Below are positions 56,779 through 61,170 of a stretch of 64,000 nucleotides of DNA, piece by piece. The stretch is from Candidatus Moraniibacteriota bacterium. GTDB lineage: Bacteria > Patescibacteriota > Minisyncoccia > Moranbacterales > UBA1568. The translations under genes and the position numbers were made by a program. Positions within the stretch are counted from its first letter, which is position 1, and every line of letters begins with the position of its first letter. The stretch is taken from assembly GCA_052034975.1 (NCBI GenBank), contig JBPOIA010000010.1:12957-76956 (forward strand). The letters are read 5' to 3'. The notes below the pieces were generated by a model that saw only the letters and a program-made list of their open reading frames with translations, searched no databases and was not told where the DNA came from.

Positions 56779-57456
56779 ATGAACGGCAGACTCGCCGCTC
56801 TGCGGCATACACTGCGCGACTATGCCTCCAAAAAGGCATTGTTCGGCTACATCGAGAAGCATCTCTTCACGAGAAAGGATTACCGGTATCGGATCATCCG
56901 AGACGCATATGAACTATGCGAACAGGAATTCGCCGGCATCAAACGGGAGAGCGGCGAACCGTATATGACACATCTCCACGCTGTTATGGTGATCGGTGTC
57001 GTCCATTGCGGCATCCAGGACTACCGAATTATCGCCGCACTCGTCCTCCACGATCTGCAAGAGGATTTCTGGGTCAAGTGGCCGACGTACCATATCGCCG
57101 AACGATACAAGAGAGATATCGCACTCATCGTCGACGAATGCACGATTATCCCGCATTTCTACCATTTCGCCTCGGAAGAGGAGCGGGAAGCGTTCTACTA
57201 TCGGCGCATCAAGAAAAGTCATGCTGTCTCACCTCGGCTGCGAGGGAAGATGCGTCGGAACCGATATGGATCGATACCGGTAAAGCTTTCGGATCGGATC
57301 CATAACATCCTCACGCTCGGATTCGTTGACAGCCAAACACGGCGGATCAACAAGATCCGTGAGACGGAGCGACACCTTCTGTCGCTTGCCCGAAAATACC
57401 AAATCCTCTACAAGGAGCTTTCGGCCGCGCTTCGGGAAGCAAACAGTCTCATCTGA
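56779..57456 (+). CDS. HD-domain protein related to the RelA/SpoT (p)ppGpp hydrolase domain (small alarmone hydrolase-like)
   Basis: GEPYMTHLHAV...LVLHDLQED HD motif in the SpoT-hydrolase arrangement; no synthetase domain; GGAGG SD sequence. Confidence 0.6.
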   Translation: MNGRLAALRHTLRDYASKKALFGYIEKHLFTRKDYRYRIIRDAYELCEQEFAGIKRESGEPYMTHLHAVMVIGVVHCGIQDYRIIAALVLHDLQEDFWVKWPTYHIAERYKRDIALIVDECTIIPHFYHFASEEEREAFYYRRIKKSHAVSPRLRGKMRRNRYGSIPVKLSDRIHNILTLGFVDSQTRRINKIRETERHLLSLARKYQILYKELSAALREANSLI

Positions 57457-57540
57457 TGCCCGCTTGGAAACATCGTTTCTCGCGGGCAGTTTTTTTTGTT
57501 GATTCTAGACAGATTTTCTGCTAGGATAGCAAAGTGAAAA

Positions 57541-57598
57541 TTGGGGAGTAGCCCCTGGCCGAAGCCAAGGCTTCAGCCGCGGGCAGGCAAGCGGTAAG
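57541..57598 (+). repeat. Partial duplicate of the tRNA-Gln 5' region (two blocks separated by a 34-nt hairpin insert), upstream of the GIY-YIG gene
   Basis: ttggggagtagcc (57541-57553) and caagcggtaag (57588-57598) repeat the tRNA-Gln 5' end (57853-57877). The insert cctggccGAAGCCaaGGCTTCagccgcgggcagg is itself a hairpin. Confidence 0.6.
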
Positions 57599-57605
57599 AT
57601 ACTCT

Positions 57606-57863
57606 ATGACAAAGTGGTACCTTTACATTTTACAGAGCAAAAAAGACAGTGGTCTGTACGTCGGTATTACAAGGGATATCAATCAAAGACTGCGTCAGCA
57701 TAATGCCGGAAAAACGTTTTCTACACGTTCAAGAAGACCATTCGTCCTTGTTTATTCGGAAGAGTATCAATCTTGTGAAAAAGCAAGGAAACGAGAGAAA
57801 TATTTGAAAAGTTATTCCGGAGGAAAAGAAAAACAGAAAATTATCAAGATCATTGGGGAGTAG
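57606..57863 (+). CDS. GIY-YIG nuclease family protein (85 aa, homing-endonuclease-like)
   Basis: YLYILQSKKDSGLYVGITRDINQRLRQHNAG is the GIY-YIG catalytic motif. The 3' end overlaps the first 10 nt of tRNA-Gln. Confidence 0.8.
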   Translation: MTKWYLYILQSKKDSGLYVGITRDINQRLRQHNAGKTFSTRSRRPFVLVYSEEYQSCEKARKREKYLKSYSGGKEKQKIIKIIGE

Positions 57864-57928
57864 CCAAGCGGTAAGGCACCAGGTTCTGGCCCTGGTATGC
57901 GTAGGTTCGATCCCTACCTCCCCAGCCA
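57854..57928 (+). tRNA. tRNA-Gln (anticodon CTG)
   Basis: U1:A72 acceptor (UGGGGAG/CUCCCCA) and G73, typical of bacterial tRNA-Gln. Anticodon stem CCAGG/CCUGG with loop UUCUGGC; T-arm GUAGG-UUCGAUC-CCUAC; encoded CCA. Confidence 0.8.
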
Positions 57929-57942
57929 ATAATTAATCCTCC

Positions 57943-59088
57943 ATGTCTCTTTTAAAAAAGGGTTTAATAAAAAAATATTTTCAAAAAATATTGCAAGATA
58001 TGAGAAAAAGAATTTTAGTTACTATTTTTAGCATCTTTATATTTTTCAGTCTTCTTTTTATTCTCCTGTCGCTTCTCGAAGAACAGTATCGGTTATCTCT
58101 AGGGAGACCAGCGAATTCTTTTCAAACACAAATCCTCATACCAATTTTTTCTCTAAAAAATGCCATTTCCATCTCGCTTTTTGGTATAAATAGTCATCTT
58201 GAGTCAATTCCTTCGCCGCAAATCATTTATAGAACACAAAAACAGCGTTACTCCTTGCTTTCTCCCCAATGCACCGCCGAAGAATGCCTTACGAAAATGA
58301 CACGGGAAGAAACGATTTATGGAACTGCAGTCATAGAAGGGTATTTTATTCCCGTGGAAAGGAAATATAATCAATTTCAAAATAATCAGTGCACTGGATT
58401 TGTTTTGACCGGCGGTTCTATAAATTTACGGAATTATTTTTCAGAATTGTTACAGAAAAAAAGCGTTCTTGTTTCAGAGAATATCGATGGACAATTGATT
58501 ATTAATCTGAATTTTGATAATCTCGACCCTGCAGATATAAAAAAAATCTTAGCGTCAGATGTGACACGGAGGCTTCAGCTTAGAGTCATAAAAAACTCCC
58601 GGGTGGATATGGGTAATTCCGGGTGCTTTACTTCAATGAATATTCTCAGTATCGACGATGCTCCACTAAAAGAATTTCCCCAATGTAGTTATAATACAAT
58701 CTATCAGAACACCGTTTTTGGAATTAAGTTGTCATTTCCAAACAATGTATGGTGTTTGCCGAGCTCATCAGATAATGATCCTCATATCTATAATGGAAGC
58801 GCTTGTATCTATGAAAGCTGTCCTGGATTAGAAATTCGGAATCATAGTAATGATTCTAAATTTTCATTCGATATATTACTGAATCGTGCCACAAAAGAAG
58901 GAAGAAATCCTGTTGTTTTGAGTGATTTAATATCAGATGCTATCGTTATCAAATCAGCAGCCCCTGGACCAGCTGAAGGATGGCTTTATGAATACGGTAT
59001 ATTTTTCAAAAAAAACCAACGTCAATTTATCATTTTTACCAATAATGAATCTATTGAATCAATCCTAAAAACCATGAAACTTGAATAG
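57943..59088 (+). CDS. Hypothetical secreted/membrane-anchored protein in an AT-rich island (381 aa)
   Basis: ~33% GC; N-terminal TM; multiple Cys; no recognisable family. Lies immediately downstream of tRNA-Gln and ends at a strong terminator. Confidence 0.45.
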   Translation: MSLLKKGLIKKYFQKILQDMRKRILVTIFSIFIFFSLLFILLSLLEEQYRLSLGRPANSFQTQILIPIFSLKNAISISLFGINSHLESIPSPQIIYRTQKQRYSLLSPQCTAEECLTKMTREETIYGTAVIEGYFIPVERKYNQFQNNQCTGFVLTGGSINLRNYFSELLQKKSVLVSENIDGQLIINLNFDNLDPADIKKILASDVTRRLQLRVIKNSRVDMGNSGCFTSMNILSIDDAPLKEFPQCSYNTIYQNTVFGIKLSFPNNVWCLPSSSDNDPHIYNGSACIYESCPGLEIRNHSNDSKFSFDILLNRATKEGRNPVVLSDLISDAIVIKSAAPGPAEGWLYEYGIFFKKNQRQFIIFTNNESIESILKTMKLE

Positions 59089-60012: not shown

Positions 60013-61170
60013 TCAAAGTGCGAGGTCTTGATCGGCCTCGATTTTGTTTTTCTTGACGGACAGCGAAACGCTTTCTTTGCTCACTGTTCGCGCGTCTTCG
60101 ACTTCTTTGCGAACAGGGGAGGGCAGGGCGGCTACGATTGATTTGAGTGCGATACCGTCTACTTTCAATACCGATTCCCATTGGTCAAGCGGCTCCAGAA
60201 TGGCGCGCAGCCTCTCTTCATCATACGTATAGGTCTTTCTCACCGTCTTGCCGATGATGCCACGCTCCCCGAACACCCGCTCCACTCCCTCGTGTTCCAT
60301 ATAGCCGAGGATATCCGCTTGTAGCTTGGCCAGACGCAGTTTGTCGCCACTCATCCGATCTTTCAATTCTAGATACTCCTCGATCTTTTTTTCAGCCTCT
60401 TTTGTTTCGAGCGTTTGCGATTCAGAAAACTTGTGCTTCCAAAGCGGACAGATCTTCTGATACCCACACCAGTCGCAAAGCGGAGAAAACAACGGATCGA
60501 ATTTCTTCTCTTCAATCGCAGCGATAACACCGAGAATATTCTCTTCTACCGTATCAAGCTGTTCTTTCGTGCGCGTGGAAGAAAGTTTCACGCCGTGTTT
60601 CAGGTAATAGAGGCTCACGGTAATCTTGTCGAGATTCGATTCTTCGCTTGGATAGCGTTTGAGAAAAGCTTTCAGGTAGATCGAAAGCTGAAGGTCGTGA
60701 TCCACCTTGTCCTGCGAAGGCATTTTTCGCGCGGTCTTATAATCGATGATCTCGTAACCATCCTGCGTCTTGTCAATACGGTCGATAACGCCCGAAACGA
60801 TGTGTTTACCCGAAGTGTCGTCACCGATCTCGATAGCGAAACGACTTTCCAAATCGACGATGGTATAATCCGCCGGACGGTTTTTCTCAAAATATTTCTG
60901 AATAATCTCCACGCCTTGGGTAAACGCTGCGCGTTCTTCCAGTTCGCTGTCGTATGCATCACTGTTCCAACCCTTGGAAAAATAATCGAGCGCCTGATCG
61001 GGAGTGGGCGAGAGCGTCGCTGGTGTATGCACGTATTTGAGTACGGAATGAATAAGCGTACCAAAAATCGCTTCTTTGGATTTCGGTTCGCTGATCCGAT
61101 CGATTTCCCTAAACTTGTATTTGAGCGGACAGCTCTGATAGGTATCGACGGCCGTATAGGAGAGGCGCAT
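60013..61170 (-). CDS. PD-(D/E)xK nuclease with a Cas4/AddB-type [4Fe-4S] cysteine tetrad (RecB-family exonuclease)
   Basis: N-terminal Cys (YQSCPLKY) plus C-terminal CDWCGYQKIC (C-x2-C-x5-C); RecB motifs VIDRID and EIIDYKT; extra ~100-aa C-terminal domain. Confidence 0.7.
   Translation of the reverse strand: MRLSYTAVDTYQSCPLKYKFREIDRISEPKSKEAIFGTLIHSVLKYVHTPATLSPTPDQALDYFSKGWNSDAYDSELEERAAFTQGVEIIQKYFEKNRPADYTIVDLESRFAIEIGDDTSGKHIVSGVIDRIDKTQDGYEIIDYKTARKMPSQDKVDHDLQLSIYLKAFLKRYPSEESNLDKITVSLYYLKHGVKLSSTRTKEQLDTVEENILGVIAAIEEKKFDPLFSPLCDWCGYQKICPLWKHKFSESQTLETKEAEKKIEEYLELKDRMSGDKLRLAKLQADILGYMEHEGVERVFGERGIIGKTVRKTYTYDEERLRAILEPLDQWESVLKVDGIALKSIVAALPSPVRKEVEDARTVSKESVSLSVKKNKIEADQDLAL

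Follow-up and report, generated by a model that had tools for sequence, protein, structure and literature searches.

In the 64-kb stretch of DNA analyzed here (the window), the 5′ part of a tRNA-Gln gene is present twice, its upstream copy is split by a 34-nt hairpin, and one small gene encoding a GIY-YIG protein lies between the two copies. An earlier note on this locus proposed that a homing-endonuclease-like element had inserted at, or rearranged, the start of the tRNA-Gln gene, leaving a duplicated fragment behind. The question raised is whether this gene belongs to an inserted element and, if so, what kind of element could settle within a tRNA gene that is still intact.

Organization of the tRNA-Gln locus

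A repeat search confirmed the partial duplication, and the coordinates previously given proved accurate within 1 nt. The intact tRNA-Gln(CTG), found by ARAGORN and by the Rfam tRNA model (63.3 bits), occupies positions 57854..57928 (+ strand, as for all features below). Its pieces nt −2 to 12 and nt 12 to 22 are repeated 312 nt upstream, where a 34-nt element, hereafter H, separates them. The left copy of the first piece, fragment A (57540..57553; leader nt −2 and −1 plus tRNA nt 1-12), is identical at 14/14 positions to 57852-57865 (ATTGGGGAGTAGCC), the first 12 nt of the tRNA being part of the right copy of this direct repeat. H itself (57554..57587), placed after tRNA nt 12, is an imperfect palindrome rich in GC (CCTGGCCG...CGGGCAGG) that contains the inner hairpin GAAGC/GCTTC, and it occurs only once in the window. 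It is followed by fragment B′ (57588..57598), a copy of tRNA nt 12-22: positions 57585-57598 match 57862-57875 at 13 of 14 nt and include the exact block CAAGCGGTAAG, shared by 57588-57598 and 57865-57875 (11/11). The 12-mer TGGGGAGTAGCC has only two sites in the 64 kb, both at the repeat (0.06 expected by chance; two sites in none of 100 shuffles).

The only substantial ORF with a protein-family match between the repeat copies is the 85-aa GIY-YIG gene (57606..57863), as initially described. Its 5′ UTR consists of B′ and of the 7 nt (57599-57605) that precede the ATG, and its stop codon TAG (57861-57863) corresponds to tRNA nt 8-10 (U8-A9-G10), generating a 10-nt overlap between the ORF and the tRNA.

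Upstream of the repeat, a GCCCGC ... GCGGGC stem followed by T8 (57458..57497), read off the sequence and uncalled by the consensus scan because of its long loop, is a probable intrinsic terminator of the upstream HD-domain gene, at which the preceding transcription unit would end. In a related locus, L092, the HD gene is likewise followed by a hairpin and a T-run. The putative native promoter of the tRNA-Gln gene (57499..57527; TTGATT, 17-nt spacer, TAGGAT), also read off the sequence, matches 8 of 12 consensus positions and lies under the threshold of the scan; the TTGTTGATT motif is found at a comparable distance 5′ of the tRNA or of the fragment in L092 and in another related locus, L094. 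After insertion, this promoter would drive one transcript comprising the fragment, the ORF and the tRNA. Fragment A is continuous with the native leader, whose sequence (...tgaaaaTTGGGGAGTAGCC) is common to the L092 locus, and most likely represents the tRNA gene's original 5′ terminus.

Two other candidates were examined and rejected at this locus. A yybP-ykoY Mn2+ riboswitch at 57843-57867 reaches 15.7 bits, where the Rfam gathering threshold is 45, and covers the first 23 model positions only, reflecting a chance likeness to the tRNA-Gln 5′ end. A split or intron-containing tRNA, or a group I intron bearing a homing endonuclease gene, does not fit a tRNA that is complete and uninterrupted, and no Rfam intron match was obtained at E values up to 1. 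The two other tRNAs of the window (Ala and Thr) have ordinary flanks.

A minimal GIY-YIG protein of foreign composition

The ORF product matches Pfam PF01541 over residues 3-71 (68.1 bits for a cut-off of 22.6; E 8.5e-19), and residues 4-81 of 85 match the solved UPF0213 structures 1zg2 (E 6e-9) and 1ywl (E 1.2e-6). Residues Y7, Y18, G20, R28, H32, N33 and E64 are invariant in alignments of 11 and 16 homologues and include the catalytic-type set (two Tyr, Arg, His/Asn and Glu). Judging from these similarities, the protein is a member of the GIY-YIG superfamily, belongs to its UPF0213/Slx1-like stand-alone branch and is a predicted nuclease. Pfam, NCBIfam and PHROG searches of the 85-aa protein revealed no domain besides GIY-YIG. 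The earlier qualification as homing-endonuclease-like is doubtful as regards homing: the protein is limited to the catalytic domain and includes no DNA-binding domain, so that it is difficult to envisage how it could home to a specific sequence as I-TevI or SegB does.

The family to which the window protein belongs, UPF0213/COG2827 (Slx1-like; BH0048, PDB 1zg2, and EF2693, PDB 1ywl), is characterized by a minimal GIY-YIG domain of ~85-100 aa without accessory domain (PMC1564403). It includes 9170 clusters at 50% identity, and most of the 150 relatives listed have 80-120 aa. Annotation presents its members as hypothetical housekeeping proteins with no assigned role, whereas the window protein is tied to a tRNA gene, a fragment repeat and a palindrome; the open-access papers searched yielded no mention of a link between UPF0213 proteins and tRNA genes, tRNA-fragment repeats or palindromes. 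A phage origin was rejected: the PHROG search gave no match for the window protein and IMG/VR yielded one weak relative only. The family being almost absent from viral contigs, no vector is evident.

The composition of the ORF differs from that of its surroundings, with a GC3 of 0.37 compared to 0.57-0.66 for the neighbor genes. The same trend was observed over 82 family loci (mean GC3 of 0.32 for the ORF and 0.42 for the flanks), the ORF value being lower by more than 0.1 in 38 loci and higher in two.

An empty site in a related locus

The tRNA-Gln locus L092 has an orthologous HD gene, the terminator, a leader resembling that of the window and a tRNA-Gln of identical sequence, yet lacks the ORF, the hairpin and the fragment. 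Together with the foreign composition of the ORF, this empty site argues for the insertion of the cassette into the tRNA-Gln gene with duplication of part of it, so that the core of the initial proposal holds. It should be emphasized that a precise deletion between the 14-nt repeats could equally yield the empty state of L092; therefore, the presence/absence polymorphism alone is no proof of insertion. As for the upstream fragment, it is indeed duplicated, but it is not the passive scar of a single event, since fragment and hairpin form a module conserved in many genomes and tRNA types.

Same design across tRNA genes and phyla

Family loci were collected with an 11-sequence protein alignment. 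Relatives whose proteins are 57-72% identical to that of the window are found after dnaX, after dsbB and elsewhere, and retain the fragment, H, the ORF and tRNA-Gln, including the 10-nt overlap. More generally, the 85 family loci come from many phyla, and in 59 of them the ORF adjoins a same-strand tRNA; these tRNAs represent 17 amino-acid types. On its far side, the ORF is flanked by at least 14 nt of the adjoining tRNA in 51 of these 59 loci, compared to 27/295 for a control with tRNAs of other types, and the mean matched length is 33 nt versus 4.9 nt in this control. A perfect GC-rich hairpin is present in this far-side region in 43 of the 59 loci, and the partial tRNA copies are usually interrupted by GC-rich palindromes or have an arm replaced by one. 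When the tRNA is downstream, the longest exact repeat extends from tRNA nt −5..+1 to the start of the palindrome in 12 of 22 loci according to a strict automatic count (~17/22 by eye). Relatives also display a second layout, in which the intact tRNA is followed by the ORF and then by an H-modified tRNA copy.

Fragment B′ extends to the anticodon loop in L094 and is sometimes unlike the adjacent tRNA (L094, L004, L002 and L357), that of L357 matching another isoacceptor; these mismatches indicate that B′ moves as part of the cassette. Membership in a protein clade goes along with the type of tRNA, a link that is also compatible with mostly vertical inheritance. In Bacteroidota, the units form tandem arrays of three to at least eight units, and ORF-less or ORF-decayed derivatives were found in four loci (L345, L357, L315 and L356). 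An Rfam search of 13 related loci detected no intron or other family match.

H and related palindromes

H folds as a hairpin, but its energy compared to shuffles of this GC-rich stretch is not significant (z −1.27); it is its conservation in relatives, not its folding energy, that leads us to accept it as real. In seven relatives, its termini CCCTGGCCG and CCGCGGGCAGGC are invariant and its inner stem shows a compensating two-sided change (AAGCC/GGCTT versus GCGCC/GGCGC). Palindromes of the H family are also present within other tRNA fragments, and they occur away from tRNAs as well as in units that lack the ORF. An identical 31-nt H is carried by four unrelated contigs (GC 0.33-0.49), at both tRNA and non-tRNA sites. 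In a metagenome scan for H, most matches were due to chance in GC-rich coding DNA and 12 low-GC matches were informative. Proximity of H to a GIY-YIG ORF (~100 nt) is far more frequent than expected by chance.

In several clades, the tRNA fragments next to GIY-YIG ORFs are split by another palindrome of 20 nt, CCTGCCTGCCGGCAGGCAGG (PAL). This palindrome has 42 copies in 35 viral contigs, several of them with flanking direct duplications of 7-14 nt, and one of the 42 has a GIY-YIG gene within 400 nt. Matches of the 14-mer GTAGCCCCTGGCCG in viral contigs were chance-like and were set aside. The type of hairpin varies independently of the protein clade. The orientation of H relative to the strand of the tRNA and ORF, read by eye, is forward in at least 14 cases and flipped in one (L009).

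The hairpin had been suggested to be a processing or recognition element. It is not merely a local processing signal, as it belongs to a family of GC-rich palindromes that are also present at non-tRNA sites, and H is more likely a structural or recognition element acting at the DNA level. A reading in which A and B′ would be RNA guides around an H scaffold is disfavored by the flipped H of L009, by the variable position of H within the fragment and by the copies of H devoid of tRNA flanks.

A putative class of cassettes that rebuild their target

The window locus probably belongs to a large class of selfish elements, small nuclease cassettes that are embedded in tRNA genes and rebuild them; we hold this explanation with some reserve. 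Searches of open-access papers and of Rfam yielded no description of the class or of its architecture. The cassette comprises a stand-alone ORF of ~85 aa of the GIY-YIG nuclease family and a tRNA-like piece split by the GC-rich palindrome H. In the window, a 312-nt segment (H, B′, the ORF and A′) lies after nt 12 of tRNA-Gln, and the initial 5′ portion of the tRNA (A) would have been left upstream as an orphan on the native promoter. A′, the copy of nt 1-12 that the cassette brings along at the 3′ end of its ORF, would then complete host nt 13-76 into an intact tRNA. Because A′ rebuilds the tRNA, the insertion would entail no loss to the host. The ORF would be transcribed from the tRNA promoter, presumably together with the tRNA. 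This topology would be expected if a unit bearing a tRNA mimic split by H (A′-H-B′) were inserted either through a single crossover (Campbell-type) or in a homology-directed manner: a crossover 5′ of H would generate the orphan 5′ fragment, the ORF and the intact tRNA, as in the window, and a crossover 3′ of H would generate the layout of other relatives, i.e. intact tRNA, ORF and H-modified tRNA copy. The nuclease may favor spread by introducing a DNA break, either in the cognate tRNA gene or in the palindrome, the conserved tRNA sequence providing portable homology arms. H is a palindromic module that can be recognized on its own; it accompanies the cassette and labels whichever copy of the tRNA is redundant. 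Besides the lack of a DNA-binding domain and of an evident vector, and the alternatives of deletion and of vertical inheritance noted above, further points argue against this scheme: any target inside the tRNA would persist in the intact tRNA beside the ORF, and maturation of the tRNA by RNase P would cleave the mRNA 5′ of the ORF stop codon.

A broader version can only be proposed tentatively, and we consider it doubtful. A minimal structure-selective GIY-YIG nuclease would use GC-rich palindromes (H and PAL) as recognition or cleavage structures and the tRNA sequence as a landing pad, and would thereby copy itself into tRNA genes, rebuild them and spawn ORF-less palindromes and tandem arrays across phyla, thus constituting an unrecognized class of prokaryotic mobile elements.

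Alternative explanations

The palindrome could instead be the primary mobile entity, with the GIY-YIG protein as its structure-selective, transposase-like nuclease, the tRNA repeats as target duplications of variable length, B′ and the ORF as optional cargo, and ORF-less H copies as MITE-like elements mobilized in trans. The four identical H at tRNA and non-tRNA sites and the frequent vicinity of H and GIY-YIG ORFs point in this direction, as do the PAL copies, which lie beside such ORFs in several clades and repeatedly have short duplications in viruses. The window insert also starts with H and has a 14-nt duplication on its flanks. Furthermore, Slx1-type GIY-YIG enzymes are described in PMC1564403 as cutting branched and hairpin DNA. 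However, 41 of the 42 viral PAL copies have no GIY-YIG gene within 400 nt and hairpin types vary independently of protein clades, which makes this scenario unlikely. To our knowledge, the GIY-YIG superfamily consists of hydrolytic enzymes, and no transposase is known among them. A quite improbable alternative is a host operon, in which tRNA-Gln and the nuclease linked to it would be transcribed together and the tRNA-like leader and hairpin would act in cis as RNA, by controlling translation or stability or by competing for RNase P or tRNA-modifying enzymes. Such an operon would agree with the constant location of the ORF on the tRNA strand, with the stop codon inside the tRNA, with the promoter scan, which found no promoter proper to the ORF, and with three features of the hairpins (orientation bias, compensating changes in the inner stem of H, and arm-for-hairpin replacements that preserve the cloverleaf outline). 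The existence in prokaryotes of a fusion between an Slx1-like protein and a TrmH tRNA methylase has also been taken as a hint of a role in RNA metabolism (PMC1564403). Nevertheless, it does not fit a cassette that is present or absent beside an identical tRNA, the foreign composition of the ORF, the tandem arrays and decayed copies, H being flipped in L009 and present at non-tRNA sites, or the lack of any Rfam family match in the window region and in the 13 related loci.

The earlier note also viewed this tRNA as an integration hotspot, and the AT-rich gene located 3′ of it (GC3 0.29), which is not homologous to the gene found there in L092, gives this view slight support; neither a repeat of the tRNA 3′ end nor an integrase was found. 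This foreign gene is likewise what would favor an att scar of a conventional integrase island at tRNA-Gln. However, it is the 5′ end of the tRNA that is duplicated and not its 3′ end, the repeats enclose the 85-aa ORF alone, and the 64 kb include no integrase and no second tRNA 3′ end. A duplication due to chance or assembly conflicts with the same design in dozens of independent assemblies and with a repeat far beyond chance. Taken together, these two origins have a negligible probability.

If the favored explanation, i.e. cassettes that rebuild the tRNA genes in which they are embedded, is correct, the genes annotated as hypothetical GIY-YIG/UPF0213 in phyla such as Patescibacteria and Bacteroidota would find an explanation, many of them being selfish cassettes that colonize tRNA genes non-destructively. 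The catalog of mobile DNA would gain a very small type of element (~300 nt and one 85-aa protein), and a family of short palindromes found across phyla would gain a candidate enzyme. It would also explain tRNA pseudogenes, odd hairpin-armed tRNAs and tRNA-like arrays that confuse annotation. The cassette offers a testable system for target choice by a nuclease devoid of DNA-binding domain.

Comparison with known systems

SegB of phage T4 is a GIY-YIG homing endonuclease whose gene lies in a tRNA cluster; it recognizes a 27-bp site with a T-psi-C motif and drives the inheritance of its own gene and of neighboring tRNA genes (PMC2330249). As in the window, a GIY-YIG nuclease gene is found among tRNA genes and is present or absent between relatives. 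However, SegB is a much longer protein with a defined 27-bp site, and its gene is intergenic, without target duplication or palindrome, whereas the cassette is chromosomal, encodes the catalytic domain only, lies inside the tRNA gene, rebuilds it and carries an H-split tRNA mimic. Compared to free-standing homing genes, the cassette has the presence/absence polymorphism (L092) but not the DNA-binding module.

Integrative elements that target tRNA genes are kilobases long, encode tyrosine or serine integrases, carry a replacement tRNA segment in attP and duplicate the 3′ end of the tRNA. The cassette resembles them by its insertion in a tRNA gene, the rebuilding of an intact tRNA, the partial copy left as a direct repeat and the Campbell-type topology. 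Unlike them, it duplicates the 5′ end (or another part), has no recombinase and spans only ~300 nt.

REP/BIME sequences with their RAYT and IS200/IS605 elements rely on HUH Y1 enzymes and species-specific hairpins. They share with the cassette the association of short dispersed GC-rich palindromes with a small nuclease gene and, in principle, the possibility of precise excision. However, the sole protein of the cassette belongs to the GIY-YIG superfamily and is not an HUH Y1 transposase, and the same palindromes are shared by different phyla, mostly within redundant copies of tRNAs.

Structure of the tRNA-Gln locus

The tRNA-Gln(CTG) gene of the window (57854-57928, plus strand; found by ARAGORN, 63.3 bits with the Rfam tRNA model) is preceded by a split duplicate of its own 5′ end. 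The 14-mer ATTGGGGAGTAGCC, made of leader nucleotides -2 and -1 and tRNA nucleotides 1-12, occurs exactly twice in the window (57540-57553 and 57852-57865), and a repeat search found a second copy of CAAGCGGTAAG (tRNA nucleotides 12-22) at 57588-57598. The two upstream blocks are separated by 34 GC-rich nucleotides that fold into a hairpin (H, 57554-57587), present in a single copy within the 64 kb. Between the copies, a single substantial ORF matches a protein family (57606-57863, plus strand; PF01541, E 8.5e-19); it encodes an 85-aa GIY-YIG protein, and its TAG stop codon coincides with tRNA nucleotides 8-10. Since the repeats, hairpin, ORF and stop position were all reproduced, the description in the earlier note is accurate. 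The repeat is not a common motif either: 0.06 occurrences of its 12-mer core are expected per window and no shuffle contained two copies. The flanks of the two other tRNA genes of the window, for Ala and Thr, are ordinary. A putative native tRNA promoter, TTGATT-17-TAGGAT, was read by eye at 57499-57527; because the ORF lies behind this apparent promoter and a promoter scan of the window detected none of its own, it is probably co-transcribed with tRNA-Gln.

The 85-aa protein is a bare catalytic domain. Its residues 4-81 match the UPF0213 structural-genomics proteins BH0048 (1zg2, E 6e-9) and EF2693 (1ywl), and no further Pfam, NCBIfam or PHROG domain was found in it. The alignment shows that it keeps the residues that are invariant among its relatives (Y7, Y18, G20, R28, H32, N33 and E64). 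Judging from its sequence, it belongs to the stand-alone prokaryotic ‘Slx1-like’ branch, the minimal GIY-YIG form (Dunin-Horkawicz et al. 2006, PMC1564403). By analogy with Slx1, recognition of structure rather than of sequence seems more plausible for such a domain. The family comprises 9170 clusters (50% identity) at E up to 1e-3 and 794 at E up to 1e-10. Lengths of 80-120 aa predominate among the 150 clusters listed.

Insertion of the cassette

The upstream neighbor of the locus, an HD-domain gene (56779-57456), has orthologues at 62-68% identity. In a relative (L092), the order is HD gene, terminator, a similar leader (...ttgttgattgttcactgaaaaTTGGGGAGTAGCCAAGCGG...) and a tRNA-Gln(CTG) gene identical in sequence to that of the window. 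The ORF, the hairpin and the tRNA fragment are all absent from this locus, and the window carries 312 additional nt bounded by the 14-nt repeat. Taken alone, this polymorphism would fit a precise deletion between the repeats equally well. However, the low GC3 of the ORF (0.37 versus 0.57-0.66 in FtsE, FtsX, the HD gene and two genes further downstream) favors acquisition over deletion from L092. Over 82 loci, GC3 is 0.32 in the ORF versus 0.42 in the flanks (38 lower by >0.1, two higher). The presence of the cassette is therefore an insertion, as the earlier note had proposed for a GIY-YIG element at the 5′ end of tRNA-Gln, and the comparison of related loci that it advised did yield a site devoid of both ORF and upstream fragment. 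Since the leader gtgaaaaTTGGGGAGTAGCC, common to the window's upstream fragment and L092, is present before this fragment, the latter most likely represents the 5′ end that the tRNA gene had originally.

Other features were observed around these tRNA-Gln genes. In another relative of the window organism (L091, 1440-1615 and 1657-1729), tRNA-Gln(CTG) is inverted with respect to the HD gene and lies beside T-arm-like fragments (GTAGGGATCGAAC ... GTTCGATTCCTAC), between which there are GC-rich hairpins; the locus lacks a GIY-YIG ORF and is probably the remnant of a related event. Directly 3′ of the window's tRNA, a 381-aa ORF (57943-59088; GC 0.34 and GC3 0.29 versus a window mean GC of 0.50) has a hydrophobic N-terminal segment, no Pfam or PHROG match and no homology to the L092 gene at the same position. 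It looks like a second foreign insertion at tRNA-Gln, without att-like repeat. A 385-aa PD-(D/E)XK/Cas4-like nuclease gene (60013-61170, minus strand; PF12705, E 4e-37) lies 2 kb downstream of the cassette, with no evident link to it.

Distribution of the cassette

The closest homologues (57-72% identity) have different gene contexts: after dnaX (L002, L004 and L010), after dsbB (L009) or elsewhere (L094). Wherever the contig is long enough, a tRNA-Gln gene (CTG or TTG, the two isoacceptors alternating among close relatives in the window's clade) lies directly 3′ of the ORF. The 10-nt overlap is constant, except in L009 where the ORF merely abuts the tRNA. Each relative has the same upstream design: tRNA nucleotides 1-12, H, tRNA nucleotide 12 onwards, ATG. 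In an alignment of seven leaders, the termini of H (CCCTGGCCG and CCGCGGGCAGGC) are invariant and its inner stem shows compensating changes (GAAGCC/GGCTTC in the window versus GCGCC/GGCGC in L094). The fragment of L094 extends to the anticodon loop (...GGCACCGCGCTCT, then ATG), and the window and L002 have in common a shortened junction, GGTAAGATAC(T)CTATG, although their tRNAs differ. These comparisons indicate that the cassette is a conserved module and not a scar; the earlier note's view of the duplicated fragment as the leftover of one insertion does not hold, as the fragment-H-ORF design is kept in other contexts. L094 also carries a second GIY-YIG ORF (880-1161), about 100 nt 3′ of its tRNA-Gln and with GC-rich hairpins before it, so that cassettes can lie on both sides of one tRNA gene.

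A scan with the protein alignment, using one genome per species, gave 549 relatives; the best 80 of these and five loci from earlier searches were examined, mainly MAGs labelled Patescibacteria, Bacteroidota, Omnitrophota, Planctomycetota, Bdellovibrionales and Gammaproteobacteria. A same-strand tRNA gene abuts the ORF in 59 of the 85 loci, with 17 amino-acid types, and is located downstream only (n = 25), upstream only (n = 28) or on both sides (n = 6). The far side of the ORF repeats at least 14 collinear nt of the same tRNA in 51 of these 59 loci (mean 33 nt), compared to 27 of 295 controls with tRNAs of other types (mean 4.9 nt), and includes a perfect GC-rich hairpin in 43. When the tRNA is downstream, as in the window, a 5′ fragment of it, 20-55 nt long, lies before the ATG, and one to three palindromes break this fragment at positions that vary; the longest exact repeat begins at tRNA nucleotide -5 to +1 and extends to the start of the palindrome, as a strict automatic test shows for 12 of 22 loci and reading of the same output by eye for about 17. 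When it is upstream, the ORF continues into another copy of the tRNA in which hairpins interrupt or replace the D, anticodon or T arm (CCCCGCC-N4-GGCGGGG in place of the D arm in Bacteroidota tRNA-Pro copies), and the stop codon is again often U8-A9-G10. With the Rfam tRNA model, the altered copies reach 43.6 bits and the intact gene 60.5. Bacteroidota also carry tandem arrays of three to at least eight units (ORF plus modified tRNA copy) behind a single intact tRNA (L052, L089, L050 and L069). In a Chitinophagaceae MAG (L052, 2385-5231), at least eight tandem 347-nt units come after an intact tRNA-Pro, each consisting of a GIY-YIG ORF and a tRNA-Pro copy with its D arm replaced by GCCCCGCCGTGGCGGGGC. 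In a neighbour-joining tree, protein clades follow tRNA identity (including the window's Gln, a second Gln, Bacteroidota Pro, Leu, Asn, Met and Trp). Three of the family matches listed, P0025 (214 aa), P0033 (205 aa) and P0028 (157 aa), have two GIY-YIG stretches per predicted protein and may result from read-through or fusion of neighboring array units.

Palindromes

H belongs to recognizable families of palindromes. When metagenomes were scanned for its termini, most matches lay in GC-rich DNA and were due to chance, but 12 on low-GC contigs were genuine copies. Two lie inside tRNA 5′ fragments before GIY-YIG ORFs (L342 and the decayed L356). Three others lie inside tRNA-Glu or tRNA-Val 5′ fragments without ORF, the intact tRNA following about 20-70 nt further on (oriented positions 400-580 of L345, 3760-3925 of L357 and 850-1050 of L315). 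In L357, the piece following H is of tRNA-Glu(TTC) type whereas the adjoining gene is tRNA-Glu(CTC); therefore, the post-hairpin copy of the tRNA (B′) travels with H. Six copies (CCCTGGCCG...CGCGGGCAGGC) occupy sites not derived from tRNAs (L262, 2706; L269; L323, 8623; L342, oriented 579; L291, 4084; L335, 1014), that of L342 having on its flanks a direct duplication, imperfect and about 12 nt long (AAAGCACT(T)AAA). A 31-nt version is identical across four unrelated contigs (GC 0.33-0.49). As we read the loci, at least 14 copies of H are in forward orientation with respect to the tRNA/ORF strand, and only that of L009 is flipped.

Another type, the perfect 20-nt palindrome CCTGCCTGCCGGCAGGCAGG (PAL), splits tRNA fragments next to GIY-YIG ORFs of the Leu, Asn and Glu clades. 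In IMG/VR, 35 viral contigs, mostly GC-rich, contain a total of 42 copies of it (L095-L129; for example L097, 1660; L103, 8396; L113, 3391; L119, 2284; L126, 515), rarely near a GIY-YIG gene or a tRNA. Several viral copies are bounded by direct duplications of 7-14 nt (CACAGAGA; TCTCGTCTCTCGCT; TTGCGGA). PAL behaves like a tiny cross-phylum insertion unit. The copy in L119 lies within the variable loop of a tRNA-Met-like gene and that in L126, 38 nt away from a GIY-YIG ORF, within a tRNA fragment.

Proposed mechanism and alternatives

The anatomy of the locus is A, then the insert H-B′-ORF-A′, then B-C: the insert contains a repeat of each flank of the insertion point, their order being permuted. 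A unit with a tRNA mimic split by H (A′-H-B′) could recombine once with a tRNA gene; recombination on the 5′ side of H would give the layout of the window, and on its 3′ side the other layout (intact tRNA, ORF, A′-H-rest). Therefore, one model, inferred from sequence arrangement, would cover both classes. The putative nuclease would stimulate recombination, conserved tRNA sequence would provide homology usable in any genome, and the cost to the host would be low because an intact tRNA is always regenerated. There is a precedent for a GIY-YIG nuclease among tRNA genes: the tRNA cluster of phage T4 encodes SegB, a homing endonuclease with a site that contains the T-psi-C motif of tRNA (PMC2330249).

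We favor such a selfish cassette, with a putative recombination-stimulating nuclease, over two rival explanations. The palindrome itself could be what moves, with the GIY-YIG protein as its enzyme, as suggested by the dispersal of identical H and PAL copies and by the short duplications flanking copies, but PAL copies distant from any GIY-YIG gene argue against this. The strand bias, the orientation bias of H and its stem covariation are those expected of a host operon with an RNA leader, whereas the empty site in L092, the foreign composition of the ORF, the tandem arrays and decayed copies, and the H copies at non-tRNA sites all speak against it. An integrase island or an artefact was rejected because the duplicated end is the 5′ and not the 3′ end of the tRNA, the 64-kb window contains no integrase and no second tRNA 3′ end, and the same design recurs across dozens of independent assemblies.

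The protein family and the idea of a selfish GIY-YIG gene beside tRNA genes are already known. In contrast, the architecture of the cassette is undescribed in the searchable open-access literature and in Rfam: (i) a minimal nuclease gene inside a tRNA gene that is regenerated, and (ii) a tRNA fragment or mimic that is kept and bears palindromes shared across phyla, with ORF-less derivatives and tandem arrays. No Rfam family covers the palindromic structures of the window and related loci, and PAL appears in no searchable paper. There is a substantial chance that the cassette represents a distinct class of mobile element. The hairpin-modified tRNA copies of arrays are likely to be mis-annotated as tRNA genes. 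Annotation could also be misled by a sub-threshold local Rfam match at 57843-57867 to positions 1-23 of the Mn2+ (yybP-ykoY) riboswitch, a chance resemblance that arises because the conserved 5′ segment of this riboswitch, UUGGGGAGUAGCC, equals the 5′ end of tRNA-Gln.
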